Shown: positions 19,071 to 63,167 of the stretch, piece after piece
How the letters are laid out: every line of letters starts with the position of its first letter
How positions within the stretch are numbered: position 1 is the first letter of the stretch
Assembly: GCA_016192525.1 (NCBI GenBank)
Contig: JACPTZ010000132.1
Location: 4,202-68,201, forward strand
DNA: 64,000 nt
Origin: Planctomycetota bacterium
GTDB lineage: Bacteria; Planctomycetota; MHYJ01; JACPTZ01
Direction of reading: 5' to 3'
Translations under genes and position numbers: made by a program
The notes under the pieces: model-generated
Told to the model about the DNA's origin: nothing
Seen by the model: only the letters and a program-made list of their open reading frames with translations
The model's database searches: none

Positions 19071-22000
19071 TCAGGGACCGTCTGCGGTCCGGTCCACATA
19101 GTAGATAGTCCCGTTGCTCGAGCCGACGATGACGAAGTGCTTGTAGCCAAGCCCTCCCGAGGCCGGCACGAAATAGTCCATCGCTACATCGCTCATCTTG
19201 TCGGTGGGCGCCCCCAGCTGATAGGTGGCCACGGTCGTCGGCGCGCCGGAAATGTCCACCACGAACAGCTTCCCGCCGTTGTTGGGGACATAGATCACGT
19301 TTCCATTCCGATAGACCCCCCCCTCAATCGGGGTGCTGTCGGTCGGGCCCCCCGGCCGGTACCGGGGCTGCAAGACGGCCGCCTGAAAGCTGAGTCCATA
19401 GAGATATCCGTAGCTGTCGGCGAAGTGCACCTGCCCCCAGAAGATGTCGGCCAGCCCCGTGACCGCCCCGATGTCATTGGGAGAGCCGGGAGCGTACGGC
19501 CAGTTGTAGCCGGCGTGGCCCGAGGCCACACCGAAATCCCTCAGATCGGTCGTCGGATAGGGAAGCGACGCCGCGTACTGCTGTCGTCCGTCCACCACGT
19601 GGAATTCGCTCCCGGTCGTGCCGACGAAGGCGGCTCCCGAGGAGCCGACGACGATGGCCGCGTTCACCGGGGCGTCCGTGATCGCGGTCATCTCAGGTCC
19701 GAGCGGGACCTTGACCTCGACGCCGTAGAGCGTGTTCGCGCCGATGAACATCCTCCACGGGAGCGTCAGCGTGTCGATGGCGGGAGCTGAGGCCACCGGC
19801 GAGGTCGGCGCGTTGACGAAGAAATACTGGGTGGGATCCGCGTGCACGCCGCTGTTGGCGGCATGGACCGAGCCGATCCCCGACACCCCGGCGAGCCTGG
19901 GCGAGCCCTTCACCGTGCTTCCGGTGGTGTGCTTCCGGGCCTTGACGGAGGTCCCCAGGGCGTGCGCCAGGGTCAGTCCCGAAACCCCGGTGAACCTCGG
20001 GGTGGGCGAGGTCGTCTTCCCCGTGTACGTCACCACCTCCTGACTCCCGCCGGTGTCGACCCAGAGGCTCCCGGAAGCGGCAAAGCCGGTGACGCCGACG
20101 ACCTGAATCACGGCATCGGAGGGATTGAGTGCCACCGACGTCGTCGTTTCATAGAGCCCGCCGCTGATTCCGGTGAATTTCGCCGTGGGGACCGATTGCA
20201 GTCCCGTGTACGTGACCGTGGAGACGGTTGAGCCCGTAGTGACGGTCATTGATCCCGAGGGAGGGTATCCGCTGACCGACACGACGGACAGTTCCGTGTC
20301 CGCGGGCAAAAGGTCCGCCGTGGTGGTGGTCGAGGGCGAGACATATCTGTCCGTATAGGTGACCACGTCGGCGGAGGCGCCGTCCATGATCCGGATCGTC
20401 CCGGCGCTGGGGAAACTCGTGACCGTATTCATGACAATCTCGGTGGCCCCGGGATTCGCCGGCAGACTGAGGGAACCGGAGGGGGCGCGGTAGGCGAACA
20501 ACCCGGCATCCGCCCCCTGGGACCCGCCGAAGAAGATGAAGTGGTCGCCGGCGGCATAATAGGCGTTCTCGTAGTCGTTCGAGAAGGGAACCACCGAGGA
20601 GGTGATCCCGTTCCCGACATCGATCGGGTTGGTCCCCCACGCGGCCCAGGGAACAAGGGCCGCTCCGGTGTTCACCAGGGCATAGAGCATCCCCGCGTCG
20701 GTGCCGATGAAGACGAGGCGCTCCCGCGGATTCACGGGGCTGGTGTCCCAGAAGGGGAGCCCGACGACGGCGCCGTTCGCGGATGGAATCGCGAACTCGA
20801 ACATGACGTTGCCGTACCGATCCAGGACGTACACGGCGTCGTCTCCGGTCCTCTTGGAGGTGACGTAGGTGGCATACCACTCGCCCGTGTCGAGATCGAA
20901 CGCCGGCGTCACGAACAGTTGCGGCTCGCCCTGCACGGCCGGAGCCACGCTCTCGGTCCACAGAACGACGGCCTCACCCGCCTGGGCCGGGGTCTCCAGG
21001 GTGTTGTTGCTGTTGACGTCGTTCTCCAGATCGAAGGTCTCCCCGGAACGGTCGGACGCCACCATGGAGGGGAATTCAAACCGGGCGATCAGGGTGGCGC
21101 CGCCCGACACGGAGGCATTGACATTGGTCCCCGCGGCGCTGTCGAAGGTGCAGTCCGGCGCTTTGAGATCCACGACAGCCCCGGGGGCGCCGCTCCGGAG
21201 AAGCGTCAGGGCGGTCCCTCCGGCGAAGTCGATGAAGGCGATCCCCTGGAGGGTGTCGGACTGGCTGCCGGAGGTGATGACCGCGGCGGCCTCGATGCGC
21301 AGGGCCGAGCTCCCCGCGGACGAGAGCCGGAGACCGTTCACGTCGAGCGTCCCGCCGACCGTCATGAAGGGGGGGGAGGCGGGCGCGGCCAGGCTGGTGA
21401 TGCCGGCGGACGCGGTCGTGATCTGGGCTCCGATCCCCCGGAAGGGGTCGGGCACGGCGGGGACGCCCCCGATTCCGGTGAGGGCGTTCGGGCCGGTGGC
21501 CGTCCCCGTGTAGGTCACCGCCTGACCGTCCACATAGACCGTTCCGGAGGGCGGGAACCCGAGGGTGGTGCCCACCTCGATGTTCCCGGTGTTGTCGGCG
21601 GAGGAGACCTCTTCCGTGGCCGAGGTCGCCGCCGTTCGGGTCGTGCGCAGGGTGCCGTTGATCGCCACGCCCTGGCCGCCGCTGATGCGCAGCGAGGGCG
21701 CGGCGGCAGAGGTGGCATTCATCAGGAGTGTCGCCCCGGCCGATGTCGCCAAACCAGCCGCGGTGAGCGTGGTCGTCCCCAGATCCAGGGTCCCGCCCAG
21801 GATCTCGACAAGGCCGGCCGCGGTGGTGTCTCCCCCCACGGTGACGGTCCGCGCCCCGGCATTGATCTGAATCCGGCCGTACGTCGCGGGGAACAAGGTG
21901 CGGTCGGTGCTGGAGTCCTGGTAGCGGCAGAGCGAAGTCGCCGCCATCGCAAAGGTGTCGGGGGCGGTGAACGCCGAGTTCAAGTTGAGCGTCCCCGCCC

Positions 22001-33551: not shown

Positions 33552-33613
33552 CCCGATGTCTTCTCCCCCCCGACCGATCGCGCGGGACCGGCGTCACCCC
33601 GTTCCTTCCGCCT

Positions 33614-33766: not shown

Positions 33767-33838
33767 GAGCGATTCCTCCCGCGGCGAATCACGATCAGGG
33801 CCAGGAGAGAGCATCCCACACCGAGCCGCGTGTGGCCG

Positions 33839-37300: not shown

Positions 37301-37757
37301 CCACGGGCGAGGACATGCAGTTCCCCCCCAGGGTGGCGGTCCAGAGGGTCGCGCCGGTCGCCGCGTCCAGGGCTCGAAGAGTGCGCTCCATCGTGGCCAC
37401 GTAGAGCCGGCCTCCGTAGGCGAGCGGAGCGGCGTTTACGGCGTTGTGCGGGTGATCGGCCACCCTGACGTTCCACACGGTTGAACCGTCGGCCAGCCGG
37501 AGGGCATGCACCTCGCCGGAATTCAGACAGATGTAGGCGAGATCGCCCGCGACCACCGGAGAGGCGACGATTTCCTCGCCCGGGAAGGAGACCGTCCATC
37601 CTCCGGCGCCGGACTCGCTCACGGGAAGGACAAGCGTCTCGGCCGACGATCGCGTCCCGCCCGGCGTCCCGCCGAAGGACGGCCAGTCGTCGGCCATCGC
37701 CGGTCCGGACACGAGGAACAAGACAACGAATGTGAGCAGGGTCCTTCTCATCGCCAC
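34335..37757 (-). CDS. Multidomain surface protein, paralog of 15550-19023 (PQQ-like propeller, 2x FN3, beta-helix, TSP3 repeats, beta-sandwich, Cys-containing C-terminal tail); partner of the 8,466-aa giant
   Basis: 1140 aa. Signal peptide MAMRRTLLTFVVLFLVSGPAMA-DDWPSFGG, with the same domain order as its paralog. The C-terminal ~110 aa is nearly identical to the paralog (GPSGYTMPLGLLRFNVNTGG...LTLTDGGPEDADGAPNGVIEDPGG). The tail is GGGCFVREIGRQGPFGVVFLWVAGLLLWVGRRR. It starts 10 nt (GTG 37757) or 16 nt (ATG 37751) after the giant gene's stop. Confidence 0.85.
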   Translation of the reverse strand: MAMRRTLLTFVVLFLVSGPAMADDWPSFGGTPGGTRSSAETLVLPVSESGAGGWTVSFPGEEIVASPVVAGDLAYICLNSGEVHALRLADGSTVWNVRVADHPHNAVNAAPLAYGGRLYVATMERTLRALDAATGATLWTATLGGNCMSSPVAVDGVIYVGSGFPETTLHAVDATSGAPLWSGDAGAFVFGAPAVEGGRVYVGNNKGVYSAFSTGPLGGALVGSFELGGSAEIAAPAATPTGVFLTVARQSKRFAALAPDLSSVIWSAKFENPSAPPPWSNPAASSPSVAGGTLLFVAGQRPGTGLSLFARDAASGGPLWNLSLGNTLEQIGITPSPLTTSTQAICATQGSAQLRVLDLATGADLAASPYPLSGPCAASPVFANGRIIVCTWNGTVHCFNSPNAPPPAPASGFAPAGGTAILTDSTTLLWDAVADPDGDTVTYIVRYDIDGDLIDYTEVSAGAAASLAIGSLPDNSTVAWAVRARDANGAASPFSATQTFVVTVPPAPPAFFGAVPADGAATLTWGASPSPDVDHYEAAVRLSGATSFGPYVDVGGSGSYSWGGLTNNVAYDFSIVAVDATALTSADVQSSVIPSLPVTLEIAGGGTATYPSVAAALAAAGDGDRVLLDAGDYGQLTGLSLPEGVTLAGAGPGPSGTRIDGKGMVGALIVVAASNGNRAELRDLSLLGAAIGADADGGVLQLRNVVIRACDVGVRAENAADLEVINVTIDAPTDLGIDLLNSQSAVRNTLIQGAGQFGLQSDASSAPFATLGYNNVVGSGTADYSGLAADANSISSAVAFLDALNGDYREASGSPNVDAGDPADAYNLEPYYNGSRINIGAFGNTPDATISPAPPGQDIDGDGILNADEIALGTDPNDMDGDTDGDGQSDAAEIGGDPASPLDTDGDGVVDALEPAAYEGVGQGDVLGFVVSETEADALGLPGLAGALIVIETTTPGATLTRVVTAGYATPVENTSATGGGPSGYTMPLGLLRFNVNTGGAAAVTVTIAYDASTSIPTNAVYLKFTTGWATFAGATGLGDGDNVVTLTLTDGGPEDADGAPNGVIEDPGGIAVPIPVAAVGATATGDSGGTGSSLPVPGAGGGSGSSGGGCFVREIGRQGPFGVVFLWVAGLLLWVGRRR

Positions 37758-37766
37758 CTATCCATC

Positions 37767-55700: not shown

Positions 55701-58700
55701 GCCCAAGAGACGCAATCCGTCGCCGTCCAAGTATTCGATATTCAGACCGGCGAGATTGACGCGCCCGTCGTTGCGAACCGTGAAGGCGAACGAGGTCGCG
55801 GGGGCCAGCCGCGTGATCGTCGGCGTGCCGCTCGATACCGCCGAGGTCAACACGCCGTTCGCCGTGGAGGCCGTGCCGATCGAGAGCGAAGCGCCCAGCC
55901 GCAGGGTGGCCGTCCCGGCGAGGTCGAGCTCTCCCCCCCCCGTCACCTCCATCGCGCCCGTGACCTCCGTCGTGCTCGAACCCGGGAGGAGAAGCGTCCC
56001 GGCCCGCACCGTACAAACTCCGCCCACGGCGATCGTGGCCGCCGTCGAGGCCGTCACCGTCTGTCCTGAGGCATTCACCCTCAGATCGTAGTACGTCGCT
56101 GGACGCAGGGTCTGGGCCGAGGCGGTGTCCTGATAGACCACGAGGCTGCTCCCCGCGGTGAAAGTCCCCAAGCCCGTCACCGGACCGTCGAGCTCTAGGG
56201 TGGCCGTCCCGGGCGCGGGCGAGAAGTCCACGGCGCCCGCCGACGCGTCGAAGGTCCCATCGAGGTGTACCGTCCCCCCGGAGGCCTTGAGCGTGCCGTC
56301 GGCGCCGACCGTGATGTTCCCCGCCACGCTGATCCCGAGCGCGGCCAGATTCAGCGTCCCGGCCGTGACGGTGAGGTTGCCGCTGATGGTGAGGCCCCCG
56401 GCCGGCGTGGACTCCAGTCCGACGGCGCGGTTGAGCGTCAGGTTGGCGTAGTTCGACGGCGCCGGGACCAGGATCTGCTGGTCGCCGGGCGAAGTCGACC
56501 GATACGACACCGTGCTCCCCGACACAGACGTGAAACTCCCGAGGCTGGCGACGCTCCCGCGCAGCCGCAACGTCCCCGCGCCGGTGAAGGCGACGGCGCC
56601 TGTCGGCGCCCCGGCCGGCGAATCGGCGGTGAAGGCGCCGGTGACATCGAGGATGCCGGTGGCCGGCAGCGTGAGCGTCGCCCCGTCCGCGATCGTCGTG
56701 GAGCCGGACAGGGTGTTGACGGTCACCGTATTCCCGCCTACGGCGAAGACGCCCGAACTCACGGTCAGGCTTCTCTGGACCGTGAAGGTCCCCGAGGCCG
56801 TGCCGGTGCTACCTCCGCCCTTGGCGATCTCCAGGATGTTGTACGTGACGGCGCGAACGTCCTGGGCGAACGAGCCGTCGTATCGGACCGTTCCGGACCC
56901 GCCGTCTAAGGTACCGAGGCTGGTGACCGTGCCCGCGAGCCGGAGCGTCCCCGCCCCGGGGAAGTTCACGAAACCGCCGGACGCGGTGAAGGAACCGTTC
57001 GCGTCGAACACCCCGCTCGCCTGCAGATTCAGCGTCCCGCTGACGGCCGTCGAGCCGTCCACCGTGAACGTGACCCCGCTGACGTCCAGGGTCGAGTTGA
57101 CCGCTAGGGCGGATCCCGAACCGACGGTCACGGCGCCGTTCACCGTCTTCGTCCCCGTACCGGCGACCGTCAGGGAGGCGAGCGAGGTCGCCGCGGCGCC
57201 GCCGAAGTTCTGCGCCGCGCCGTCGAGCGTGACGAGCCCGGAACTCACGCTGAACGTGCCCGCGCTGTGATCGAAACTCCCGGCCAAGTTCAGGTTCTGC
57301 GTGCCCAACGTGAAGGTGCCGGTCGACGACATCGTCAACGCGCCCTCCACGTCGAGGGCGTTCCCGGCCGAGAAGTTGCCGGCGTTCTTCACCTCGAAGG
57401 CGCCGTTCACGTCGAGGGTGGCCGTTGCGCTGCCCGCGGCGGTCCCGGCGGTCTTGTCGATCGTCAGATTCCAGTAGGTGAACTGGCTCGTCGGAACCGT
57501 CTGCCCCCCCGATCCACCGAAGACAATCGTCCCGGTCGTCGCCGCGAAAGGAGTGGACGAGAGACTGGTGACTGTCCCGTCCAGGCGCAACGTGGCGTTC
57601 CCCGTGAAGGTCAGGGGCCCGGTCAGGTTGAAGTCCGAGGACGCGGTCAGCGCCTCCACGCTCCATGTCCCGGCCAGGAAGGTGAGTGACCCGCCCCCGG
57701 TGACGCTTCCGCTGGCGATCAGCCTCCGATCGGCCGCGATCTCGAGGGCGCCGGTGGAGTTGATCGTCAAGGTCCCGCCAGCGGTGACCGTAACCGCCGC
57801 GGCCGACGTGTTGACGCGGGCGGTCGCTCCCGACGCGATCGTGAGGATATTGAATGCGGTCGGGGCGGTCCCTCCGACCGTTTGCGTCGAGGTCCCGCCG
57901 AACGTGAAGGTCCCGGCGCCCGCGTCGAAGGTCCCGCCATCGTGCGTGAAGTTGCCCTTGATCGTGTGTGCGTGAGACCCGGCCGTGAAGGTCCCGGCGT
58001 CCATCTCGAACGCGCCGTTCAGGCTCATGGCCTTTCCGGCCACCAGGGTTCCCGCCTTCAGCCAGAGGAGGCCGTTGACGACCAGGTCGGCGGCCGTGCC
58101 CGTGGACGCCGTTCCGCTGCTCTTGTCGATCTCCAGATTGTTGTAGGCGATCCCGGAGGTGCGGATCGTCTGGTCCGCGGTCCCGTCGTAGGAGACCGTC
58201 CCGGTCCCCGCCCCGAAGGGCGTCCCGAGCCCGCCGGAAGGAAGGTCGGCGCCGAGCTGGAGGCGTCCCGAGCCCGTGAAATCCACGGCGCCGCCGTTGA
58301 GGTTGAAGGTCCCGTTGGCGTCGACCGTGCCGGACCCGATCTTGAGGGTCCCCGTCCCGCCTGAGGTTTGCAGGGCGCCATCGACGCGAAGGGTGGAGGA
58401 CCCGACATCGAACGTGCCGAAGGTCATCGTCACGTTGCCCGCGACGGTCATGTTCGCGAGCAGGACGGCCACGCCGCCGGGCTTGTCGATGACCAGATTC
58501 GCGAGGCGTCCGTCTCCGGGGGCGGTCCCGCCGGGGTCGATTCCCCGCTGATCGCCCTCCCCGGAGAACGTGATCGTCCCGGCGGTCATGTTGAGGGCCC
58601 CCGCCGCCGCCACCGAGAGGTCGCCGTACACCTTGAGGGTGTTCGCGCTGTTATTGAGGGTGAGCGTGCCGGTGGGGATGCTGAGCGAGGCGCATTCCCC

Positions 58701-61700
58701 GAGGCTCACGTCCAGGGTCGGTTGAAACGCTACGGCGGGGATGATGGCGTCTGTGTCCTGGGTGGGAATGCCCGCGCTCCAGTTCCCCGCCGTGTTCCAG
58801 GAGGTCGTGCCCGCGCCGCCGGTCCACGTGGACGAGAGGACCCACTTGATGCTGCCGGAGGCGGAAGCATCGGCGCCGCCGTCGCGGTCGTTCTCGGTCG
58901 CCGTTCCGCCCGTGGGCGAGAGGTTGATCGTCACAACCTTGCCGGCAGCCCAGGCGGGGTCCGTCCGAACCGAGTACGGCGGATACGTGGGCCCCAGGCC
59001 CTCGAATGTGAGCGTGCTGAACGTCAGGTTGACGGCGTTGACGCCGAGTTCGAGGTAGAGAAAGGCGTCCTCATCGGTACCCAGCAACGCCGTCTGGGGG
59101 TTCTTGAATGTGACGTTTCGGATGTCGATGTCCGTCGTCGCGGCGCCCGGGTTCAGATGGAGCCCTCGATTATTGCGCGTGTATACGCTGTCGAGCGTCA
59201 TCCCCGTGATCGTGACCAACCCTCCGGGATCGCTCTGAAGACCGACCTCGAAGCCGAAGCGAGTGGTCCCGGGGTTGTCGCTTCTGATCGTGGGGTAGAC
59301 CGAACCCGTATTCGACTGGAACGTCCCCCGGATGTCGATGACGGTCGTGTCCGCCATCGTGATAGATGAACCGTTGTTGCCGCCCTTGATCTCCAGCGTT
59401 GCCCCGGGCGACACGATCAGGTCCGGATCGGTGTTTCCCGCGACGAGATCGCCAATCACGGTGAGGTCGTTGGTGTCCTGGATCAGGAACGTACCCGACG
59501 AGACGGTCAACAGCCGGTTCACGGTGAAGTCGCCTCCGGCCGTGAGCGTCCGACCGGTCCCCGAGCTAAGGGTCAGGTTCCCGTACGCGACCGCCTCGAC
59601 GGTCTCGTTGGCCCCGGTGTAGTTGTAGATGACCGTACTGGACGTAACGCCATAGGTGAATGTCCCGAGACTGGTCACAGGGCCGGACAGTTCCAGGGTT
59701 CCCGCGCCCGTGAAGGTCACTTTCCCCCCGGTCGCGTTGAAGGTCCCGGCCACGTCGAGCATGCCGGCAGCTATCTTCACCCACCCACCGACGGTCGCGT
59801 TCCCGCCCACCGGGATCGATGTCCCGGAGACGTCGAAGATGCTGTCGAGGGCCCCGCTCTCCGTCACCGCCAGGTTGTTCGTCACGGAGAACGAGCCCCC
59901 GGCGGTCGCCGTCCTCGGCTTGTTGTCGATCGTGAGTTTGTAATACGAACCGCCGCTCGGCACGACGACCGTCTGGTCCCCCCCCGTGTTGTCGTAGACC
60001 ACTTCACTCTGCCCGATCGTGCACGTTCCCAAACTCGTCACCGCGGAGCCCAATTTCAGGATCCCGGTGCCCGTTCCGCCGAACGTGAGGGTTCGTCCCG
60101 CCATGTCGAACGCGGAGTCGACGTCGAGAGTGGACGAACCGGTGATCGAACTCTTGATCGTGAGAGAGGCTTCGGGATTCGACGATGCCCCGGGGGCGAT
60201 CGGGAACGCGGAGAAGCTCAACGCCGCCGTCTGACCGTTGTTGTCGATTTCGAGGTCGTAGTAGCGGACGTCGGCCAAGGTCTGATTCGCCCCCATGTAG
60301 CGGACGCGCCCCTGTCCGGCCTCGAAGGAGGCGGATGCGCCCAGGCCGATGACCGTCCCCCCCGTCACGTCCAATCGCCCCGTGCCCGCGACGCCGAACG
60401 TGACGGTTCGCCCAGCGGTGAGCGCGATCCCACCGCCGGCGATTAGGATTGAGGTTCCGGTCAGGGTCAGCGTTCCTCCGGAGGCGATCCCGATGTTCCC
60501 GGCCGACCAAGTGTCGATGATCGGAACCGAGGCCGTCGCGGTTCGCGCCGACTCGCTGCCGCCGCTCTTGTCGATCGTCAGATTGTAGTATCCGACGGCA
60601 GCGATGTTCTGTCCGGACGCGGCGTCGTTGTAGATCACCGTGCATCCGGCGAAGGCCGTGAAAGAGCCGCCCGCCCCCTCGGCCAGTTTCCCCGCGGCGC
60701 CGCCGAGGGTCAGCGTCCCGGCCCCCGTGAACGTAACGCTCCTGTTCCCCGCCCCGGTGAGGTCGAATCCCGCGTTCACGTCCACCGTAGAGGCGCCGCC
60801 GATCGTCAGCGTGGGGTTCCCCGTCGTGTCGCCGTTCCCCAGCGTCGTCTGGTTGATCGTGAAACCGACCGTCGCCGTCTGCCCCCCCGTCACCGACAGG
60901 TTGTAGTAGTTCACGCCGGCCACGGTCTGCGCCGCTGCCGAGGCGTAGTTCACCGTCCCCTTCCCGGCCGTGAACGTCCCGAGACTCGTCACCGTGGAGT
61001 CCAGTTGCAGCGTCCCGGTGGCAGTGGGCACGAACATCACGGTCCGACCGGTCGCGTCGAACCCCCCGGTCACCCGCGCCGTGGCCGGTCCGGAGATCGC
61101 GAGCCCGTTCATGAGGTTCGTCGCCGTCACGGACCCGACGGTGACGGTGTTCGCCAGGCCGCCGGCGATGCCGATCTCCAGGTTGTAGTAGTTCTCCGCG
61201 GGGACCGTCAGCACTGTGGCCGCGGTGTACTGAACGGTCCCGTTCCCCGCCGTGAATCCCAGGGCGGACCCGAGCGACGTGACGGCCCCGCGGAGGATCA
61301 ACCGGCCCGTCCCCGCCGCGCCGAAGGTCAGGATCTTGCCGGTTCGATCGAACGAGAACGTCCCGGTCACGTCCACCACGGAGGCCCCGGAGATCGTGAG
61401 GCTGTTTTCGACGCTCGTGGTCGTCACGTTGAACCCGATCGACGCGGTCCTCCCGCCGTTGTTCGCGGTCAGGTCCCAGTAGTTCGCCGTGTAGACGGTC
61501 TGGTCCGACGCCGCATTGTCGTAGATCACCTCGCTCGTCGAGCGGGTGAAGACGCCGAGATTCGGCGCCGGGTCTCCGCTCAGGTAGAGCTTGCCCGCCC
61601 CCCCCGTGAAGGTGACGATACCTGTGGTATTCGCCGTGAACAGGCCGTTCGCGTCCACCGTGCCGGTCGAGATCCTCATCTCCTTCAGCGCGGCGACCGA

Positions 61701-63167
61701 GGTGTCACCGGCGATCGTGATCGTGTTCGCCCCGACCGTGAGTATCCCGTTCGTCACCGTCAGGTTCCCGCTCAACGAGAGGTTCTGCCCCAGGGTGATG
61801 ACCTTGCCGGCGGTCGCGGGGTTGATCAGGACGCTGTTCAACTGGTAGGACATGTCCGTGTTGTTGATGGACGACACGGTGTACTCGGACGTGGGAGGGG
61901 CGAAGGAGATCGTGCCTTGGGAAACTGCGGAACCGGCCGAGACGGAGATGGGGTTGACGGCGTCATCGCGCGTCAGCGTCGTCGTGAACGCGCCATCGTA
62001 CAGGCCGCCGTTCACGGCAAAGGCGCTCGTCACGGTGATGTCCCGCGCGAGCGTCGTGCCTTCCCCCGGACTGGCTACGTTGAGGTTCTGGAAGTTCGGG
62101 TTCGAGAAGCCGGAAATGAAAGCCTGTCCGGGCCACGAACCGGACATGGTCACCGTGTTGAGGTTGCCGCCGTTGCTCGCGAAATACGTGGCCGCCCCTG
62201 TCCTTCCACAAACGAAGTCATTCCCGATCGTGTGGGAGGTGTCGGGGTTGGCAGCCGCCTTCCCCGTCCCGCGAACGGTGGTGCCGGCCTCGATGATGAA
62301 GTCCTTCTTGCAGTTCAGGTTCAGGTTGAGCACGATGTCGACGCCCGCGGGCCATCGAACGCGAAGGGTGTGAAAGGCATCCTGGATCCCCGTGATGTCC
62401 TTGTCGTTGGCCGGGGGGGGGGGAGGGCCGTCGATGAAGAGTTCGACGTTGTTGATCGTGGCGCCGGCGGTGACGTTCAAGCCGTCGTCGTTGTAGGTCA
62501 GTTTGATCGTGCGCTCCACCGGGGGATTCTCGAGTTTGACGTCGAGAATGCCCGAGCCGATTCCCAGGATGTTCTTGCAGGTGATGTGCGAGGCCAGGCG
62601 GGTCGTAAAAGGCGGATTACCACCGGACGGGGCGAGATTCAGCGCGAAGAACTGATCGCCGATCCCCACTCCGGGGCCGGCCGCAAGGGGATCCGCGACG
62701 TCGATTCCCTTGATCTCGCCGGAACCCGAGAAGGTGACCGTGCCGCCGGTGGAGTTGAACGCGACACCGGAGTTGTTCGTCCAGTTACCCAGGACCGTGA
62801 TGGTGTTGCCTCCCTGGGTGAGACGGCCAGTGGCCTCGAGAAGAACGTTGCCCGGGGCGCTCGTGACATTCAGGTTCTTGTTCGTGACGCTGAGGGTGAT
62901 GGTGTTGCCGGCCGCCGTCCCGATCGTCAGACTGGCGACGGCATTTGTGTCGATGTTGACCGAGATTATCTTCGCCGCCGCCCCCGCGGTGTGATCGAGA
63001 ATCACATTGTCCCCAGCGGCGGGTACCCCGGGGGGACTCCAATTGCCCGCGGTGTTCCAGTTGCCGTTCCCGTTCACGTTCCACGTCTTGTCCGCGGCCT
63101 CCACGGGGCAGGCCGCGAGCCAGGCGCCGAAGATCGCGATGAGTAGATAGGGCCAACGGCTGGACAT
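37767..63167 (-). CDS. Giant secreted repetitive beta-solenoid-like protein, 8,466 aa (8 concatenated modules plus a C-terminal beta-propeller-like region)
   Basis: Uninterrupted 25.4-kb ORF with ATG at 63165-63167 and a GAGG SD 11 nt upstream. The N-terminus MSSRWPYLLIAIFGAWLAACPVEAADKTW is a signal peptide with both a lipobox-like LAAC and an A-x-A-type site. The composition and ~100-aa repeat are the same as in the 4,826-aa paralog. It ends ...IIVGTKNGTIYYVDP. Confidence 0.88.
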   Translation of the reverse strand: MSSRWPYLLIAIFGAWLAACPVEAADKTWNVNGNGNWNTAGNWSPPGVPAAGDNVILDHTAGAAAKIISVNIDTNAVASLTIGTAAGNTITLSVTNKNLNVTSAPGNVLLEATGRLTQGGNTITVLGNWTNNSGVAFNSTGGTVTFSGSGEIKGIDVADPLAAGPGVGIGDQFFALNLAPSGGNPPFTTRLASHITCKNILGIGSGILDVKLENPPVERTIKLTYNDDGLNVTAGATINNVELFIDGPPPPPANDKDITGIQDAFHTLRVRWPAGVDIVLNLNLNCKKDFIIEAGTTVRGTGKAAANPDTSHTIGNDFVCGRTGAATYFASNGGNLNTVTMSGSWPGQAFISGFSNPNFQNLNVASPGEGTTLARDITVTSAFAVNGGLYDGAFTTTLTRDDAVNPISVSAGSAVSQGTISFAPPTSEYTVSSINNTDMSYQLNSVLINPATAGKVITLGQNLSLSGNLTVTNGILTVGANTITIAGDTSVAALKEMRISTGTVDANGLFTANTTGIVTFTGGAGKLYLSGDPAPNLGVFTRSTSEVIYDNAASDQTVYTANYWDLTANNGGRTASIGFNVTTTSVENSLTISGASVVDVTGTFSFDRTGKILTFGAAGTGRLILRGAVTSLGSALGFTAGNGTVQYTAATVLTVPAENYYNLEIGIAGGLANTVTVGSVTATNLMNGLAISGPATARVTGGFDATGRTVMFVPTATGTLQLDSTVTSLGTFTAGKGTVNYASAAAQTVAGVNYYNLSVTGGQTATVGFTINQTTLGNGDTTGNPTLTIGGASTVDVNAGFDLTGAGNRSVTFTGAGTLTLGGAAGKLAEGAGGSFTAFAGCTVIYNDAASGQNIAAVGYYNLTIDKSGGSESARTATASVPIIDTWSAGNIGIASGGTLTLTGTSILIAGGGIALTAGRTVTFGVAGTGRLDVTGGTVIGLGASASFEAGQGRVRYMGANQTLADVRYYDLEIDNNGQTAALSFSAFPIAPGASSNPEASLTIKSSITGSSTLDVDSAFDMAGRTLTFGGTGTGILKLGSAVTSLGTCTIGQSEVVYDNTGGDQTVVVPSGGSYYKLTIDNKPRTATAGGSFSVTNNLAVTESGALDSIFDVSGTSIPVGGNATVGGWVKIAAGMLDVAGTFNATGGKVTFTGAGTLELSGPVTSLGTFTYGVTSSTVIYNYTGANETVEAVAYGNLTLSSGTGRTLTAGGDFTVNRLLTVSSGTFLIQDTNDLTVIGDLVAGNTDPDLIVSPGATLEIKGGNNGSSITMADTTVIDIRGTFQSNTGSVYPTIRSDNPGTTRFGFEVGLQSDPGGLVTITGMTLDSVYTRNNRGLHLNPGAATTDIDIRNVTFKNPQTALLGTDEDAFLYLELGVNAVNLTFSTLTFEGLGPTYPPYSVRTDPAWAAGKVVTINLSPTGGTATENDRDGGADASASGSIKWVLSSTWTGGAGTTSWNTAGNWSAGIPTQDTDAIIPAVAFQPTLDVSLGECASLSIPTGTLTLNNSANTLKVYGDLSVAAAGALNMTAGTITFSGEGDQRGIDPGGTAPGDGRLANLVIDKPGGVAVLLANMTVAGNVTMTFGTFDVGSSTLRVDGALQTSGGTGTLKIGSGTVDANGTFNLNGGAVDFTGSGRLQLGADLPSGGLGTPFGAGTGTVSYDGTADQTIRTSGIAYNNLEIDKSSGTASTGTAADLVVNGLLWLKAGTLVAGKAMSLNGAFEMDAGTFTAGSHAHTIKGNFTHDGGTFDAGAGTFTFGGTSTQTVGGTAPTAFNILTIASGATARVNTSAAAVTVTAGGTLTINSTGALEIAADRRLIASGSVTGGGSLTFLAGTWSVEALTASSDFNLTGPLTFTGNATLRLDGTVTSLSSTPFAATTGTIVFGGSGGQTVPTSQFTYWNLTIDKTAGTAAGSATATLDVNGAFEVKNAGNFSAGNALDVEGALTMSSTGTFTLGTQNLNLAGSFDHSAGTFSVSSGLVTLDGAAQNFGGAAATSLASLTVAGTGTKTVNGAVTVGSGSALAVNSTLDVSGVTFTVDGSTAVSGTLNLQASGVFDANGSFTASGGFVNFPGAGTLRLAGTVTSLGTLDGGSGTVRYDGSFAQDVRAVTYNILEIAKGGGSTGTASGTFTVQRSLTVSSGVFAVGGNTVTVNTLSGSTTIADGATLTLPATGILDVTGAFTADSPAGAPTGAVAFTGAGTLRLRGSVASLGSFTSVSGSTVSYRSTSPGDQQILVPAPSNYANLTLNRAVGLESTPAGGLTISGNLTVTAGTLNLAALGISVAGNITVGADGTLKASGGTVHLDGTFDASAGAVDFSPAPGTATLELDGPVTGLGTFTAGSSLVVYQDTASAQTLRPATYYDLRVNASGQTVTASTAATIAVGGVCTVRAGTLLLPGSSTTEVTGAMEVTGGGELDLAGTATLRLGASLSIGTASTANGVLTSAVSSGTPTITRLAPATSFAFTVRNDGRVNLAGLNIEYLDGDGLRLLGDSSVSSVMGGIAFANVATIAVNYGYTSFLNVRISRSTSLSGAILATDTTIGATSTGSFPSSGTLRIDAEEMNYSSTTAGTFEGVTRGVNGTAADAHNSGAAVRLVTKYQFSDCSFTSVNPLAAPPQYNVASAGIDFTGGIELLSATGPGSGATYENDSENPGTVNPGEITWPVAILWTGANSTAWGTRQNWSTGAVPTANDNVRIDDKVNDPTLNITVASTSLTADLTIGGGTATVVSTAGFPAEGSLLIDSEAMRYTGTTATTFTGLVRGVNYTTAAAHTSGAQVWLGGCKSLQITNGRLTISAANTLEIYGDFTVESAGVLNMTAGTISLRGSANQTFDPGGTAAGDGRITNLTVDKTGGTATLSTDTTVSGALTLTAGTLNVGSVTLTVNGATTSPDGGAAALLRIGTGTFDANADINISTAAPTDFLTCVGTSTIRASSSVTRLGSFTASTGTFIYDGGANATILTAGTTYYNLTLGKAAGVTATVPDGGTLNVTNDLTLSTGNLDSDAVPATTNVTINLTRDFILGAGAGTYYTRNATVNIGRDFTHNGGTFDSVTSGGSSLFTFDPPSSATQVIGGAVNTSFNSVTIASDSDTTIASGLTIAVNGTLTNNGTLTFANASNHLLDVNGPFDGAVGSTVVFTAGGELRLGGSALLRSLTAGSGTITYDSGGAQSVEALTFYSLKIDKAGGTATANAGTLTVGVGGTLTVSNGMLDLATNAATLKVDGSALLSDNGGAPIAQVTVSDGVSAGVLDLNGACTIQAGALIVFGAFAGGRVDFGGAATFPADPTVWLTPGSGTIRFNRVDASFGISRNGATGYNHLAIETQNTPTNVTASAPAGLTLTVGGALAIVKGTFDVTTATVNVAGGVTNASKLNLGTGAGSGVVDLAAGSTFDGTGGTLMFASGGGALYLSGSVTDLGTLNATAGTVVYDSTADQTVDAVTQYYNLTIAKTGGTATLGSGSTAVAGALTVSDGGFDVGANTLTVTGATNLSDTTPPAGGTVSISTGVLDLNGSSTIAGSTNGNKNLVFTGIGRVDFGGATTFPADPTVWLTPGIGGTVRYDRTGADFTFSRNGTTGYRHLTFAITSTNTASAPAGALTIAGNLTITTGIMDLSAAGATISVAGNLAIADGHELKANTGETIDVTGSVNANATGKMTFTGAPVLKLRGAVTSLGTTASFTAGSGTVQYLGTVDQTMAAVDYQNLLIDNAGFTVTLNGTATADGTLTVTAGPPARTLALAGGSDLRVTGNVTVNASSTLTLTNACTLRVGNASTLQVDGTFAASGTSPNLPTVTSTNPGTDRYGFVLNGAVTVDGLNVGSTNASGMVIGATSTLTGNNLANVKFSYGVDPGGVWLNFQTTSAGPFNVTAVTFPGSDFAQYNVRTPSTYAASTVLMGQSPGARSGATYEDDFFNPPGTGGTQTPGSIEWIMLRTWTGGTVGFERNWTTAANWNPSDSYPLAGDDVVIPNLLYDPQLNVPAACRNLTISGGAPVEFQDGGTLDVKGNASVAGSIGMAAGMKLVFSGTGTQNFTPGGSEYLNVEVNKTTGLVVLTGSPGNLTVSNELTLTKGTLDVGAKTLTVGAGAGAGDMTIKGEGTLQIGTGTADGHGAFDASAGGAVTFTGTGRLELGGGVPLNGLGNFTAGTGTVSYDGAADQTIRTLNVVVPYDYNNLEIAKAAGTTGTTGASAALKVGGTLRIVTGNLTAGAAIDANGAFVMESNAGTLNLGSSSHTFAGNFAFDGGAITPVTSLVTFDGGAQAIGGTAPSAIPFYSLAIAPGSTTTLNHSASVASLGSLTVSGELTISTSYTFTANGAATIAGTLTLSGATPVFDAAGSFNATGATVTFGAAGTGTLRLGGAVTSLGAVFTAGNGTVVYRNQAAGSTILTSGIAYHHLEVDTSGMTANAQAAAVLDVNGGFALTSGTFVANNALDIEGALTLNGGTFTLGGQTLNLAGDFSHAAACTFTAPTGLVTLDGAAQGFGGTAASTSLASLTVAGTSVKTISAAVAIGASSSLTVNSTLDISGATVTVDGTSSTSIGGTLNLQAGGTLDADGAFTAAGGFINSPGAGTLRLAGAVTSLGTFSGGTGTVRYDGVSDQSVRDVSYNNLEIVKGASTGTATGTFSVGGTLTVTSGTFSTGANAVTVTGAATIEDNATLRITTGSLDVGGAFTADAPAGGPPTGAVIFSGAGTLTLRGSVSSLGSFTSASGCTVAYRSTAAGDQQVLVPAPSNYANLTLNRAAGLTSTTAGALTISGNLTVTAGTLDLAALGITAGGGLSVGASGTLKAAGGTVHVDGTFDATGGTVDFSPGAGNATLELDGPVTSMGGFTAGNSLVVYQDTGSAQTLRPATYKNLKVSASGQTVTASTAATIAATGTCEVSTGTLSLPGGSVLEITGAAGVTGNGTLALSGTAILRLGLSLSIGTATANGVLTSAISGGTPTITRLAPAASYAFTVQNGGRAALDGLNLEYVNGDGLRLLGNASASCDVDRVAFSNVSTTPVTYGYACCLKVEREINPATFQFSECSFAATTPFNVATPAGFLTSVEMLSASGAGAGASYENDNEGGSVTPGRITWPVYIIWKSPNPGGTTAWDTGSNWSGGAVPTNANNVRIPLGDGGRNPTLNATPRDCKSLLITTGTLNITAANTLNVYGDITVLSTGALNMTAGTIALLGDANQTLDPGGTTVGDGRIANLTVNKTGGMAILATDTTVAGAFTLTEGTLDIGTATLTVNGATTSSVGGTVATLKVGTGTFDANGDINISAAAPTDYLTCTGASTIRASSTVTALGSFSPGSSNFIYDGVGAQTIRGALGSYWDLTIAGSSPGTVEGGVTLTVSNDLTVSSGTLDGNDASDPAISIGRDLVLSGGTYLARDAFVTILRNFTHNGGTFTAGGGGPGASQFIFDGTTQGIGGTSTSTTFVDLTIPLGSDTTIASNRTVTVSGTLTNDGTITFSAATADYVLDVNGTYAVAAGSVYFAPTADGTLRLGGPVSLGSLTAGSGTVVYDSGGAQSVEPLTFYNLRIDKAGGTATADAGTIAVGGTLTVSNGTLDLATNAATLRVTGATTMTDNALAPIAQITVSDGVSGGLLDLDGSCTIQAGALIVFGAFAGGRVDFGGAATFPADPTVWLTPGSGTVRFNRADASFGISRNGATGYNHLTIETQSIPTNVTASAPAGLTLTIGGSLAIVKGTFDVTTATVNVAGSVTNASKLNLGTGAGSGVVDLAAGSTFDGTGGTVTFAPGGGTLYLSGPVTDLGTLNATAGTVQYDWDANQTVDTVTQYYNLTIAKGLNSTALLGGTTSVAGALTVSDGGLDVGSNTLTVTGATSLSDTTPPAGGTVSISTGVLDLNGSCTISDSTNANKNIVFTGTGRVDFGGAVAFVPGATVWLTPGTGGTVRYDRTGADFTFSRNGATGYRHLTFAITSTNTASAPAGALTIAANLTVTTGIVDLGANNATIGGNLSVADGQEVKAATGSTIDVTGSANANATGKMTFTGTPVLKLRGAVTSLGTTASFTAGSGTVQYLGTLDQTMAAVDYQNVLIDNAGYTVTLNGTATADGTLTVAAGPPARTLALAGGSDLRVTGNVTVNASSTLTLTNACTLRVGAGSTLQVDGTFSASGTSPNFPTVTSTNPGTDRYGLTLNGTVTVDGLNVGSTNASGMAIGGTATLTSYNMSNVKFSYGVDPGGVWLNLQTTQPSGANPLNITGCEFPGANPATYNVRTPNAAPYTTDSTVLMGNSSGGRSGQTYEDDRVGGTITPGSIEWIVTRTWAGGNNVGGDANANGILDQFDWIIPANWTPGDNFPQAAEDAIIPNQFYDPRLGASVSCRNLIVNVFAPVEFLWGGVLNVNGHLTNSGSFTAAATTLSAPMGTGDSVANVVSTGAFADSGTLRIDSEDMTYTAKTGNSFTGLTRGAPASHTNGAAVILDAKLAFTGTGAQNFTPGPGPGPGGYLNIELDKTSGSVALTGAPGSVTVSNNLTIKQGTLDINSRACTVGGILNFPGPGVTRAITLTSGTLTCNGTLNGTGGTITNTGGGAGALVIGGSVSSLGTYAPGANGICSYSNQTSNSSIFPFAGYNRLQVNVNVKIATLGGDATAGGLVQVFSGTMDLGTSTLTANNGLDVSAGATLRLQAGAALPTPTLAVASGKTVTVLGTFLSRQSATPIKPSVTGAGPFAFVVDPPGTIDVDGLDFGFANANGLYARTGATIAQLNNVSFHDTFSPGGTGVRLDDGVSGNLNFAFCDFAALAAGDYNIFTSNPPFAGTVTMSFPSGLGGTVAYERDGETSPATGAATGDIRWPTARTWTGANGTTAWNDPLNWSPSDNYPQPADDLLIAAGANPDPTLNIATGDGRNLWMTGRTLTLPAGATLQLTGSLLKSGGTIGADPTSVLRLYGTAGQTLNAGGSTLGALEIDKTSGAVAIPFPGTTAVGGDLRLKQGTLPILNATVTVGGVFSKAGAAGGTRTLTVENSVFTVGGSFDATDITLTVVTGGSTTININGPPVSLGTFTPGQSLVVYGAPSSDQNLLTAAGWNYYRLKIACGATYKVTMSATDSVTGGTWPATPSLEVTSGTLSLDPSGADFTLSVTEGLKVSAGATLRLQGEDSPARRPTLAIGSGRGAQIDGKIVTLLFPNPPAPKPKITRSGGGRYSFTVSAGGEVEIEGLEMEWADVNGLNIASPNSVTVISDIEFANGDPSPYGTYMRFGATGPARKPTISACKFSGGAELVGPPPGVPNTTTPVFNITTASGFFSVLLARLYVSYPTGNMVPGGDGEVNENDEEFSPTGLTGTGTVAAASIVWLPFRAWTGDDSTDWFDPDNWTPRGTTVEIVDAADNVDGTIEVNSLRGFPDPAKPGNPAPPYSVQITTGGVPDTITYTGVATGPLRLTGVAGVDDSHPVASSVLSVPGYLVDIDDIPGEDIAVAYPASTRLPAIGPSATAECRSMLVRDSTPNATLTLNATCTLRIGGTLRTLETGGAAGILDPAGTALIRFIGDATSTFTAPNGDDLPSLMLDLSDTTQTVTPIGDPGITGNLTVNGGILERGSGMTTVSGIVSYGAVGTRIIRIRDGTLSVGGAWNGANGTLEFTGVGTLEFAGTCTVTSPLAATSFVPGSGTVLYSQTADCVVGTATYGKLDIGVSAGVVATLAGDSTVDAPGLLRVLSGTLDLGTAILTLKDSLTVSAGATLRMRDLTDDAASRPVLAIWNTKAVTVNGTIQTSTVDPGDWFDWPTVQGAIPNTDRFGFSVASTGTVNINGLNFNSPNATGMFLDQCGTFTSLARVRFLNAPAGGAHLRVTKSAALSLFCSRCYFDDSFLAGGKNVIVSDPALGSDLRLTFEDDAADTANGPGSGEANDSDDDADDDGISDGGGGVVYWVPRGNDEVLGENQLFPSGAFDLDSGDFLGTYAVQRIAGDDIIYLLDIDGEVIGQVTVSDATYGALAGLVWWDTLYFGDGVASTFTEETVDSADLAGGAADPDGTEGDIEVTSTAGFDPSGGAAFVGDVLVYYSGLDTAPERLTGVTNISGSQASSSPVGSAKTRNVAFIGTEGGWLLMLEYVPATLTLTLAKAWDLTGYPVTKISTAIIGLIEGNSCGYHMMFGGEVPDGGDAGTDPDRNMFALCLRLIDVPDGAIVNPDFVWGGGATYQTQRSDPAASGPYLNAGASFSSLGAAPAVDSAGIRTSWLVQMGASNAAIDCARGELSSAGFNFTAGWGSSGGADDKIIDAPIAYRGTDGRVYAGTYDKLDASLVGQFVGLDARISTSTDTDEAVSSADQSVGGDGTIEVADTAGWPSSGQLSIGGEVITYTGIASSPTPRFTGIGTITGSYAVDAVVSRPYAAVSGFPVSLIDGVTTLGGVKRLPDIWGDSYGPYVGTYNGYLVRISAAGGAIGPGQALALGGTNASSAPLVINLGPGLRAYIGNDAGTLYVVDVAPDPPAAMTIVKRYQLGSSPLTDISAQDDWDGLGPMIAQIIVGTKNGTIYYVDP
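44394..51389 (-). repeat. Bi-module super-repeat, copy A (modules 4+5 of the 8,466-aa protein)
   Basis: Delimited by the junction Trp codons at 51387-51389 and 44391-44393. It is collinear with 51390-58826. Antisense track ORFs recur at offsets of ~6,990-7,450 nt (e.g. 45154 vs 52147, 45985 vs 52984, 48190 vs 55636). Confidence 0.75.
44630..46650 (-). repeat. High-identity core of the intragenic duplication (copy A)
   Basis: I aligned 44641-45300 against 51631-52290 by hand (offset 6,990) and roughly nine positions in ten are identical. Similarity drops on both sides of ~44630 and ~46650. Confidence 0.8.
51620..53650 (-). repeat. High-identity core of the intragenic duplication (copy B)
   Basis: Partner of 44630-46650; see the manual alignment described there. 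Confidence 0.8.
52964..52974 (-). repeat. 11-nt homopolymer (C11 on plus strand, G11 on coding strand) inside the 8,466-aa ORF
   Basis: Counted directly: gcg + ccccccc | cccc + gacgcg. It encodes S-GGG-A within FASGGGALYLSG. The duplicated copy at ~45970 has the run broken up (ccctcccccc). Confidence 0.9.
62413..62423 (-). repeat. 11-nt homopolymer (G11 on plus strand, C11 on coding strand) near the 5' end of the 8,466-aa ORF
   Basis: Counted directly: ccgggggggg|gggaggg. It encodes PPPPP (aa 248-252, FIDGPPPPPANDKD). The paralog has FFVDGPAGAGSK here, with no tract. Confidence 0.9.

Follow-up and report, generated by a model that had tools for sequence, protein, structure and literature searches.

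Two giant planctomycete proteins are head-to-tail arrays of one large module and appear to have grown by duplication

Introduction

Two genes, g1 and g2, on a metagenome-assembled (MAG) contig of an uncultured member of the Planctomycetota encode proteins of several thousand residues, in which a tryptophan-rich motif that follows the signal peptide returns internally many times. How did such genes arise? According to the initial annotation, they are serial end-to-end fusions of eight and four stand-alone secreted proteins minus their signal peptides; alternatively, they may have enlarged by copying their own parts. We addressed this question, together with that of what the products might do, in the window, i.e., the whole 64,000-nt stretch of DNA analysed here, to which all nucleotide positions refer. 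The two genes, taken from the list of open reading frames and its translation, are as follows:

37767..63167 (minus strand), g1: 8466 aa; signal peptide, 8 modules and C-terminal domain
19071..33551 (minus strand), g2: 4826 aa; signal peptide, 4 modules and C-terminal domain

The g2 product is deposited as MBI3098717.1 with the annotation 'hypothetical protein'. As read by eye, both proteins start with a Sec-type signal peptide (g1, aa 1-24, MSSRWPYLLIAIFGAWLAACPVEA followed by ADKTW; g2, about aa 1-35). They are Gly/Thr/Ala/Ser-rich, with 6.9% D+E and 3.8% K+R.

Results

The Trp-rich cap

All ten internal Trp codons that the initial annotation had reported are found where it placed them, each specifying the W of 'xW(T/A/K/E/D)G'. 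The Trp residues are aa 1448, 2666, 3927, 5072, 6259, 6792 and 7292 in g1 (codons 58824-26, 55170-72, 51387-89, 47952-54, 44391-93, 42792-94 and 41292-94) and aa 1416, 2542 and 3674 in g2 (codons 29304-06, 25926-28 and 22530-32). The motif also stands directly after the signal peptides (W29 in g1, W39 in g2), because the first module starts there. Its core, W-x4-NW, occurs 12 times, in these copies only, against a mean of 0.045 in shuffled sequences. A profile of the 12 copies retrieves every listed site with exactly 12 matches of 53-79 bits; no other site scored above 3.5 bits, whether in g1 and g2 themselves, among 40 shuffled giants or in the window translated in all six frames. When each copy was left out in turn, 11 of the 12 still reached 27-55 bits and the remaining one (g1 aa 7292) reached 7.5 bits (E 0.01), the best shuffle scoring at most 2.1 bits; moreover, a profile built from the four g2 copies alone ranked all eight g1 copies at the top.

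The motif as first formulated holds as a consensus, but taken as a literal regular expression it matches none of the copies. Similarly, its Cys is present in 8 of the 12 copies but is hardly one of 'very few', since 2-11 Cys were counted per module. The invariant positions (W, G, N, P) are structural. The motif does recur, but it is better regarded as a cap at the N-terminal end of every module than as the junction motif it had been termed.

Module architecture

In both giants, a large self-contained module is repeated head to tail, with eight copies in g1 (A1-A8) and four in g2 (B1-B4):

58839..63095 (minus strand), A1: aa 25-1443; cap 62889-63092, 59.6 bits; about 11 sub-repeats; end domain aa 1204-1450, 236 bits
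55185..58838 (minus strand), A2: aa 1444-2661; cap 58653-58835, 74.1 bits; end domain 213 bits
51402..55184 (minus strand), A3: aa 2662-3922; cap 54990-55184, 62.9 bits, split by a ~55-aa mini-domain (aa 2721-2776)
47967..51401 (minus strand), A4: aa 3923-5067; cap 51201-51398, 78.6 bits; duplicate of A2
44406..47966 (minus strand), A5: aa 5068-6254; cap 47760-47966, 71.7 bits; duplicate of A3
42807..44405 (minus strand), A6: aa 6255-6787; short; cap 44175-44405 with 13-aa insertion, 62.2 bits (26.8 bits if left out of the profile); 2 sub-repeats; end domain 229 bits
41307..42806 (minus strand), A7: aa 6788-7287; short; cap 42609-42803; 2 sub-repeats; modelled with AlphaFold2
39594..41306 (minus strand), A8: aa 7288-7858; last g1 module; divergent cap 41079-41303, 53.5 bits; end domain aa 7625-7844, 98 bits with a profile not trained on A8; ends in a very acidic linker, then VVYW
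29319..33446 (minus strand), B1: aa 36-1411; cap 33237-33446, 61.7 bits
25941..29318 (minus strand), B2: aa 1412-2537; cap 29112-29315, 70.1 bits
22545..25940 (minus strand), B3: aa 2538-3669; cap 25749-25937, 72.4 bits
20958..22544 (minus strand), B4: aa 3670-4198; last g2 module; cap 22359-22541, 61.7 bits; end domain aa 3900-4182, 31.6 + 16.4 bits, split by a mini-domain (aa 3989-4045)

All 12 share one plan, in which the cap is followed by units of ~80 aa, an end domain of ~220 aa and an acidic linker closed by 'hhxW'; the modules are therefore complete, as had been proposed, each with its own cap, repeat body, end domain and linker. The ~80-aa unit recurs every ~105-125 aa, with 2 copies in short and 8-11 in long modules, and the end domain is found in 12 of 12 modules, two of them outside the training set of its profile. 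Acidic linker and 'hhxW' precede all ten internal caps, for which the initial annotation had said 'most', and they also end both last modules; D+E amounts to 13.9% in the linkers vs 6.9% overall, and 'hhxW' lies exactly 6 residues upstream of the next cap Trp. The module sizes first estimated agree with ours within a few per cent, except that the last modules extend to W7858 (g1) and W4198 (g2), and the C-terminal regions, put at ~650 and ~670 aa, are actually about 608 aa (g1) and 628 aa (g2). The mini-domain of ~55 aa has a match in PHROGs and none in Pfam or the PDB. The unit of cap, sub-repeats, end domain and linker has no dedicated family in Pfam or NCBIfam, the cap being weakly G8-like (see below).

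Along their whole length the modules are paralogous, with 30-75% identical amino acids and no more than 80% identical nucleotides. Mis-joining of repeats during assembly might be suspected, given that the source is a MAG contig and that in a related contig a scaffold gap divides one giant into three gene calls. Modules of this divergence are nevertheless too dissimilar for collapse or mis-joining, both ORFs are unbroken, positions 15036-22011 of the window recur at 100% identity in a Logan assembly/other assemblies (probably from the same study), and relatives share the architecture of g1 and g2, so that we regard an assembly artefact as scarcely conceivable. Separately, locus L004, with its apparent order of giant, 541-aa gene and giant, was rejected as a candidate, the '541-aa gene' being an artefact of a scaffold gap within one giant.

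Relatives of the cap

An exhaustive search with the cap profile matched 26,409 cluster representatives in several phyla, and the best 150 of these are nearly all giants with 3-11 caps spaced 300-1300 aa apart. In many Bacteroidota T9SS proteins of ~2000 aa, one cap follows the signal peptide and another lies near residue 920, and distant cap-bearing Bacteroidota proteins carry a T9SS sorting domain (Por_Secre_tail PF18962 or type B CTD). Among the giant relatives that were checked, all are annotated 'hypothetical protein' or are unnamed. The multi-cap design is, by these profile matches, common and uncatalogued in many bacteria. Two word-indexed protein searches gave match lengths only to near 2100 and 1055 aa and are blind to long proteins; g1 itself was absent from the results of every database search. 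Separate profiles for cap, sub-repeat and end domain would allow very large genes to be segmented and compared.

Growth of the arrays

In the module tree (alignment with MAFFT --auto), the groups (A1,B1), (A2,A4,B2) and ((A3,A5),B3) each have 100% bootstrap, and the modules follow one another in corresponding order in g1 and g2 (A1~B1; A2/A4~B2; A3/A5~B3). Protein identity is 54-59% between A1 and B1 over the whole length, 57-60% between A2 and either A4 or B2, and 74-75% between A3 and A5. In nucleotides, A3/A5 are 80% identical over 3.2 kb and A2/A4 71.5% over 1.8 kb, vs 66% for A2/B2 and about 66% for the orthologous module pairs of g1 and g2. Both pairs within g1 exceed the orthologous pairs, which shows that the two-module block A2-A3 was tandem-duplicated within g1 to give A4-A5 later than the g1/g2 split.

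These relationships bear directly on the proposed origin of g1 and g2 by serial fusion, in which 8 and 4 once separate secreted genes would have been joined and have lost their signal peptides. Such a history would fit modules that are complete from cap to end domain, as well as a cap that, both in module 1 and in numerous other proteins, comes right behind the signal peptide. Single-cap secreted proteins do exist: the Bacteroidota T9SS proteins P0198, P0201, P0197, P0199 and P0203 carry one cap directly after the signal peptide. They are, however, distant and devoid of the end domain, and no protein consisting of a signal peptide and one full module was found among the matches examined. Moreover, nearly all of the strongest database matches (the 150 mentioned above) are multi-cap, and the modules are mutual paralogs, colinear in g1 and g2 and block-duplicated, which argues against the joining of independent genes. 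We consider such a fusion very unlikely.

Growth by duplication is the history we favour. An ancestral multi-module giant and its downstream partner gene (see below) may have been duplicated as one cassette, after which g1 would have copied the block A2-A3 to A4-A5; the arrays would thus have been enlarged through duplication, not through the joining of separate genes. Read in this manner, the locus would display giant-gene growth in layers, from ~80-aa units to modules, to a two-module block and to a two-gene cassette.

Fold of the module and resemblance of the cap to G8

The AlphaFold2 model of A7 (pLDDT 76.9, pTM 0.78) comprises ~34 short strands and no helix of 4 or more residues, and its linker (residues 455-500, pLDDT <50) is predicted to be disordered. 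A Foldseek search with this model returned nothing significant (best E 0.19 in the PDB and 0.019 in BFVD), and the top lists consist mostly of parallel beta-helix proteins, all non-significant. Judged from the strand pattern and these non-significant lists, the module is predicted to be all-beta and beta-solenoid-like. Pfam gave no Beta_helix/PbH1 match in the giants, and a profile of the whole module found no match among PDB sequences.

The single Pfam match of the giants is G8 (PF10162) at g1 aa 1463-1529, in module A2. Over g1 aa 1-4256 the G8 model sums to 26.6 bits against a cut-off of 22.9, with no single stretch passing; of ten isolated caps, two scored 16.2 and 19.9 bits and eight had no match, while multi-cap relatives reached 27.5 and 37.2 bits. 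Only profile positions 1-69/81 of 124 are covered, as compared with about 120 aa for a full-length G8, and a PDB search with the cap profile found no G8 protein. The cap aligns over 'NW..P..D.V.I ... L.I.G.L' and, as in proteins that combine G8 with a beta-helix, precedes a repeat body that is predicted to be all-beta, whereas the upstream 'W.G....W' element of the giants is not part of G8. Our sequence comparison therefore suggests a weak resemblance of the cap to the first half of the G8 domain. G8 occurs together with parallel beta-helix repeats in fibrocystin/PKHD1, CEMIP and TMEM2, and PKHD1 also repeats the unit of G8 and beta-helix.

Such resemblances raise the question of whether the modules are enzymes, i.e., arrays of beta-helix glycan lyases or hydrolases comparable to PL6 lyases, phage tailspikes or CEMIP/TMEM2. 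The top Foldseek entries, albeit non-significant, include PL6 alginate lyases, RbmB, tailspikes and pectate-lyase-like proteins, and G8 is present in the hyaluronan-degrading proteins HYBID/CEMIP and TMEM2 (PMC12423501). On the other hand, neither Pfam nor NCBIfam matched a lyase or hydrolase family in the giants, their composition is poor in charged residues, and the invariant cap positions are structural; an enzymatic role of the modules seems unlikely to us.

C-terminal domain and partner genes

Behind the last module, each giant ends in a domain of its own, and each gene is followed by a partner:

37770..39593 (minus strand), g1 C-terminal domain: aa 7859-8466; inserted mini-domains
19074..20957 (minus strand), g2 C-terminal domain: aa 4199-4826; belongs to one family with the g1 domain
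34335..37757 (minus strand), n1: 1140 aa; 9 nt downstream of g1; MBI3098720.1
15550..19023 (minus strand), n2: 1157 aa; 47 nt downstream of g2; MBI3098716.1

The giants' C-terminus looks soluble (final residues GTIYYVD). The g1 domain is homologous to that of g2 and to the C-termini of three relatives, P0087, P0080 and P0070. Neither g1 nor g2 has a Pfam match here, while the P0087 C-terminus matches Beta-prop_ACSF4 (E 4.3e-9, 36.6 bits; cut-off 133 bits) and PQQ_2 (E 7.5e-5). The domain is probably a divergent, lineage-specific PQQ-like beta-propeller. Its hhalign comparison with the n1/n2 propeller gave a weak probability of 11%, on which we claim no relatedness, and an AlphaFold2 model of the g1 domain from a two-sequence alignment was unusable (pLDDT 32.6). 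Relatives of the domain surfaced only via the exhaustive cap search: the g2 C-terminus retrieved none in a word-indexed protein search, neither the g1 C-terminus nor the n1/n2 alignment detected anything in genome contigs, and the g1+g2 C-terminal alignment gave no match in metagenome contigs.

The partner proteins n1 and n2 are 54% identical and have the same set of domains, namely a PQQ_2 propeller, Beta_helix, TSP3 and choice-of-anchor U (84-90 bits). Both end in a Cys/TM/Arg tail (GGGC, hydrophobic helix, RRR), which matched no NCBIfam CTERM model of the MYXO-CTERM/PEP-CTERM type. Downstream of P0080 (GCA_016220095.1) and P0070 (GCA_040753835.1), within 43 and 15 nt, lie genes for 949-aa and 1001-aa proteins with PQQ_2, fn3 and Beta_helix domains, which share 30-32% identity with n1/n2 along about 850-930 aa and likewise have a C-terminal Cys/TM tail; P0087 has no downstream partner gene on its own contig. 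Judged by gene order and domain content, the pair of giant and partner is conserved in two other Planctomycetota MAGs.

Discussion

We have found that g1 and g2 are built from one module, repeated from cap to linker. We speculate that the chained modules make up a long surface fibre or adhesin divided into segments, that the giant's C-terminal, probably propeller-like domain docks to the partner encoded next to it, and that n1/n2 may be held at the cell surface by the Cys, TM and Arg elements of their tails. Taken as a whole, the most likely explanation of the locus, and one in which we have fair trust, is that of Sec-exported module chains that grew by duplication and make up a putative surface fibre docked on its partner. 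The conserved pairing with a propeller protein that is putatively anchored through a sorting signal hints at a means by which very long fibres might be attached to the surface of Planctomycetota. A further-reaching interpretation, in which the module is an uncatalogued autonomous beta-solenoid block extending from Planctomycetota to Bacteroidota gliding adhesins and the locus an undescribed two-gene fibre system docked by propellers, is offered tentatively, as we hold it to be rather doubtful. Current ideas are not overturned by these findings, repeat-built giant adhesin-like proteins being already familiar.

Could the giants instead be polyproteins that are processed at their acidic linkers ((Y/T)E(N/D)D ... 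hhxW), freeing the modules after export? The linkers are conserved, acidic and predicted to be disordered, every module appears self-sufficient, and in Omnitrophota giant proteins have been suggested to undergo cleavage (bioRxiv 10.1101/2023.11.21.568195). However, Pfam and NCBIfam reveal no protease domain in the giants and no evident protease gene in the cassette, and the exact distance of 'hhxW' from the next cap Trp is more suggestive of a structural strand than of a place where the chain is cut. Hence, processing into separate modules strikes us as most improbable, and we retain the continuous, putatively surface-docked chain as the preferred reading.

Several known secretion systems were considered. 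No T9SS cargo of the RemA/SprB type is indicated, as g1 and g2 lack Por_Secre_tail PF18962 and the type B CTD; an autotransporter (T5aSS) was rejected for want of a beta-barrel or PATR match in Pfam and NCBIfam. Two-partner secretion (TpsA) does not apply either, since there is no Haemagg_act/TPS domain and the neighbours encode PQQ-propeller proteins, not Omp85, and neither does a T1SS RTX adhesin (LapA/SiiE type), as the giants have a Sec-type signal peptide (by eye) and no HemolysinCabind. A route by which the giants cross the outer membrane was not found.

RemA of Flavobacterium johnsoniae is a T9SS-secreted gliding-motility lectin adhesin. Its residues 888-995 (PDB 8gl6 chain D) match the cap profile with E 2.8e-11, a relationship detected by the cap-only profile. 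This adhesin is secreted and carries a Sec signal at its N-terminus (PMC12618676). It has, however, one detectable cap, which is internal, whereas the giants contain 4-8 full modules with end domain; in addition, RemA possesses a lectin domain and a type A T9SS C-terminal domain, neither of which is present in the giants, which belong to Planctomycetota.

Very long secreted proteins, in which repetitive regions lack annotation and long beta-helices are predicted, are also encoded by MAGs of Omnitrophota and other uncultured bacteria (bioRxiv 10.1101/2023.11.21.568195), and a role in adhesion has been proposed for them (West-Roberts et al., bioRxiv 10.1101/2023.11.21.568195). These differ from g1 and g2 in their size of 30,000-85,000 aa and in their many enzymatic, dockerin or TSP3 domains; a module shared with g1/g2 is not established. 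Type V beta-helical adhesins (autotransporter passengers, TpsA/FHA, Fap2, EtpA) are, like the giants, long, Gly/Thr/Asn-rich, secreted and solenoid-like, and the autotransporters Hbp and Ag43 are among the non-significant fold matches of A7. However, type V adhesins form one continuous helix, whereas the giants consist of separately capped modules joined by linkers.

Layout of the locus

The two giant secreted proteins, g1 and g2, are encoded on the minus strand, each directly followed by a partner gene (n1 and n2, respectively).

Giant and partner genes in the window
63167..37767, minus: g1, giant ORF, 8466 aa
37757..34335, minus: n1, ~1150 aa, 9 nt after g1; PQQ-propeller/fn3/beta-helix/TSP3/choice-of-anchor-U type with Cys, TM and basic tail
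33551..19071, minus: g2, giant ORF, 4826 aa, annotated as 'hypothetical protein HYY93_10830'
19023..15550, minus: n2, ~1150 aa, 47 nt after g2; same type and tail as n1

Exact-sequence matching assigned the window to a 71,275-bp contig of a Planctomycetota MAG (proteins MBI3098702-720), and the flanks carry ordinary chromosomal genes (pyrF, uvrA, and genes for a TPR protein, a Ser/Thr kinase and a sigma-54 response regulator). The n1-g2 spacer (33552-34334, 783 bp) contains small minus-strand ORFs, one of ~143 aa if counted from a Met inside ORF 33839-34492 and a second of 66 aa (33614-33814); judging by the NCBI protein numbers, two proteins are annotated there. The G+C content is 66-70% across most of the window, and long stop-free ORFs of up to 2135 aa lie opposite the giants (20541-26948, 27963-32750, 50499-53942 and 45447-48398, all plus strand); most likely, these are not genes but shadow ORFs that arise from the high G+C and skewed codon usage.

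Capped modules of the giant proteins

The initial annotation described a Trp-rich junction motif recurring within both giants, and our analyses confirmed this observation. Translation placed all ten internal Trp codons at the first Trp of the motif, which also directly follows the signal peptide in both proteins. A profile built from the 12 copies retrieved exactly 12 matches (53-79 bits); the remainder of the giants, 40 shuffled versions and all six reading frames of the window gave nothing further above 3.5 bits. When each copy was left out in turn, 11 scored 27-55 bits and the divergent one at g1 7292 scored 7.5 bits. A profile of only the four g2 copies ranked all eight g1 copies first. 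The core W-x4-NW occurs 12 times, exclusively within these copies (shuffle mean, 0.045). The full motif holds as a consensus, although its literal pattern matches no copy, and the proposed cysteine is found in 8 of 12 copies. The acidic linker with 'hhxW' precedes all ten internal copies and also closes the last module of each giant. The boundaries of these last modules needed small corrections.

Within g1, G8 (aa 1463-1529) lies right on one copy and is the sole Pfam match in either giant. Isolated copies match G8 below threshold, covering profile positions 1-69/81 of 124, and multi-copy relatives pass the G8 cut-off (27.5 and 37.2 bits). Among PDB sequences the profile had one convincing match, at residues 888-995 (E 2.8e-11) of RemA, a lectin adhesin that Flavobacterium secretes by T9SS and uses in gliding (PMC12618676). 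Given these matches, the 'junction' is most plausibly a cap at the N-terminus of every module; this cap is probably related to G8's first half but is not a complete G8 domain. The module itself falls under no Pfam or NCBIfam family.

The modules (A1-A8 in g1, B1-B4 in g2) are homologous end to end. An iterated profile revealed a ~80-aa unit recurring every ~105-125 aa, with two copies in the short modules (A6, A7, A8 and B4) and 8-11 in the long ones. A profile made from the ~230 aa that directly precede each internal cap showed that every module has a conserved end domain, including the two terminal modules outside the training set (g1 7625-7844, 98 bits; g2 3900-4182, split by an insertion). 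Hence, each of the 8 + 4 modules consists of a cap, a variable number of ~80-aa units, an end domain and an acidic linker, and modules of distant proteins align with the same cap and end-domain signatures. The AlphaFold2 model of A7 (500 aa; pLDDT 76.9, pTM 0.78) shows ~34 short strands, no helices of at least four residues and a disordered linker. Foldseek found no significant relative of this model (best E 0.19 in PDB, 0.019 in BFVD), the lists from both consisting mostly of right-handed parallel beta-helix proteins. The all-strand model, together with these beta-helix-dominated lists, suggests that the module may adopt a beta-solenoid-like fold.

A ~55-aa mini-domain, 'GFP.sG.l.ID.E.itYTG....fTGl.RG', is inserted nine times in caps, end domains and C-terminal domains. 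It has no match in Pfam or PDB; one copy matches PHROGs phage baseplate, tail and virion structural families (phrog_2885, E 3.7e-9).

Mini-domain copies (sequence repeat)
g1: 54840-55007, 55392-55556, 43926-44081, 41004-41105, 39117-39278, 38223-38384
g2: 21417-21587, 20133-20288, 19941-20114

The true C-terminal domains following the last modules comprise ~608 aa (g1) and ~628 aa (g2). Pfam has no match for these final ~600 aa, and neither a word-indexed protein search nor contig scans returned a relative of this domain. Three cap-bearing relatives (P0087, P0080 and P0070) share this domain in a more compact version of 390-440 aa, which in P0087 resembles PQQ-like propeller families (Beta-prop_ACSF4, E 4e-9; PQQ_2, E 7.5e-5; both under curated cut-offs). 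Every version contains repeated 'G.lY.vD'-type motifs and ends in 'G.IYYV'. AlphaFold2 gave no usable model of the domain. Profile comparison did not support direct kinship of the propeller-like domains of giant and partner.

Duplication history

In a neighbour-joining tree, the eight long modules fell into (A1,B1), (A2,A4,B2) and ((A3,A5),B3), each with 100% bootstrap; thus, the module order of g1 and g2 is colinear. DNA identity is graded.

DNA identity between duplicated segments
A3/A5: 80% over 3.2 kb
A2/A4: 71.5%
n1/n2: 70.8%
A1/B1 and A2/B2: ~66%

In the simplest history, an ancestor comprising a multi-module giant and a partner gene would have been duplicated as a cassette, followed by a tandem duplication of block A2-A3 within g1. 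The tree and the identities therefore contradict the proposed serial fusion of independent secreted proteins. Stand-alone homologs were expected under that proposal; single-cap secreted proteins do exist, but searches that were length-limited and biased to high-scoring multi-cap proteins recovered none that pairs a signal peptide with a single complete module, so that such proteins may still exist. The single-cap proteins are distant Bacteroidota sequences without the end domain, in which a T9SS tail accompanies a signal peptide, a cap and 4-6 units. The observation is correct and well made; the evolutionary process behind it, growth of a domain array by duplication, is an ordinary one.

Distribution and partner genes

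Searching the cap profile against 1.84 billion cluster representatives yielded 26,409 matches at E <= 1e-3 (3,796 at <= 1e-10; 221 at <= 1e-30); the module is unannotated yet widespread. Nearly all of the best 150 of the 26,409 are proteins of 1-7 kaa in which 3-11 strict caps recur at intervals of 300-1300 aa. Among the taxa named as sources are Planctomycetota, Kiritimatiellia, Wallbacteria, Verrucomicrobiales, Lentisphaeria, Syntrophaceae and Bacteroidota; the closest relatives among the matches listed come from other Planctomycetota MAGs and are fragments (P0087, 47% identity; P0120, 35%). In GCA_031082105.1 (L004), an N run at ~8356 within a single giant gene causes the public annotation to split it into three calls; a 541-aa 'protein' between the P0120 and P0003 calls is a spurious piece of this gene. 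Immediately upstream of P0080 (L007, GCA_016220095.1), 5143-7938 encodes a protein of 931 aa that has a signal peptide and carries caps at aa 35 and aa 640, a small multi-module relative adjoining a giant one.

Both n1 and n2 contain a PQQ_2 propeller, beta-helix, TSP3 repeats and choice-of-anchor U, and end in GGGC, a hydrophobic helix and RRR. The giant-partner pair is tandemly duplicated in the window, and in two other Planctomycetota MAGs homologous propeller proteins (30-32% identity over ~850-930 aa, with C-terminal Cys/TM tails) are encoded within 43 and 15 nt downstream of giants sharing the C-terminal domain. Hence, the pairing is conserved in four cassettes from three genomes.

Partners in other genomes (same protein type, ~950-1157 aa range)
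L007, 21364-24213: partner of P0080
L008 (GCA_040753835.1), 17541-20546: partner of P0070

At the C-terminus of the P0070 partner, 'GCFIATAVYG' precedes hydrophobic segments; this anchor differs from the GGGC-TM-RRR type of n1/n2, which fits the 'choice-of-anchor' idea. The P0087 contig has no partner gene downstream. Directly after P0087 (L006, GCA_016190175.1, 6743-9414) lie two 46-aa ORFs and genes for a methyltransferase, PqqD and a radical-SAM/SPASM enzyme, which look like a RiPP cluster in the place of the propeller partner. The cassette is the newest element of our finding, and we hypothesise a functional role for it: since the pairing is conserved and the partners carry C-terminal Cys/TM tails, the partner may tether the giant at the cell surface.

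Comparison with known systems

Pfam and NCBIfam showed in g1 and g2 none of the domains that define autotransporters, TpsA proteins, RTX adhesins or T9SS cargo. In their mode of working, the giants would come nearest to other giant beta-helical adhesins but, unlike them, are chains in which every module has its own cap and acidic linkers connect one module to the next.
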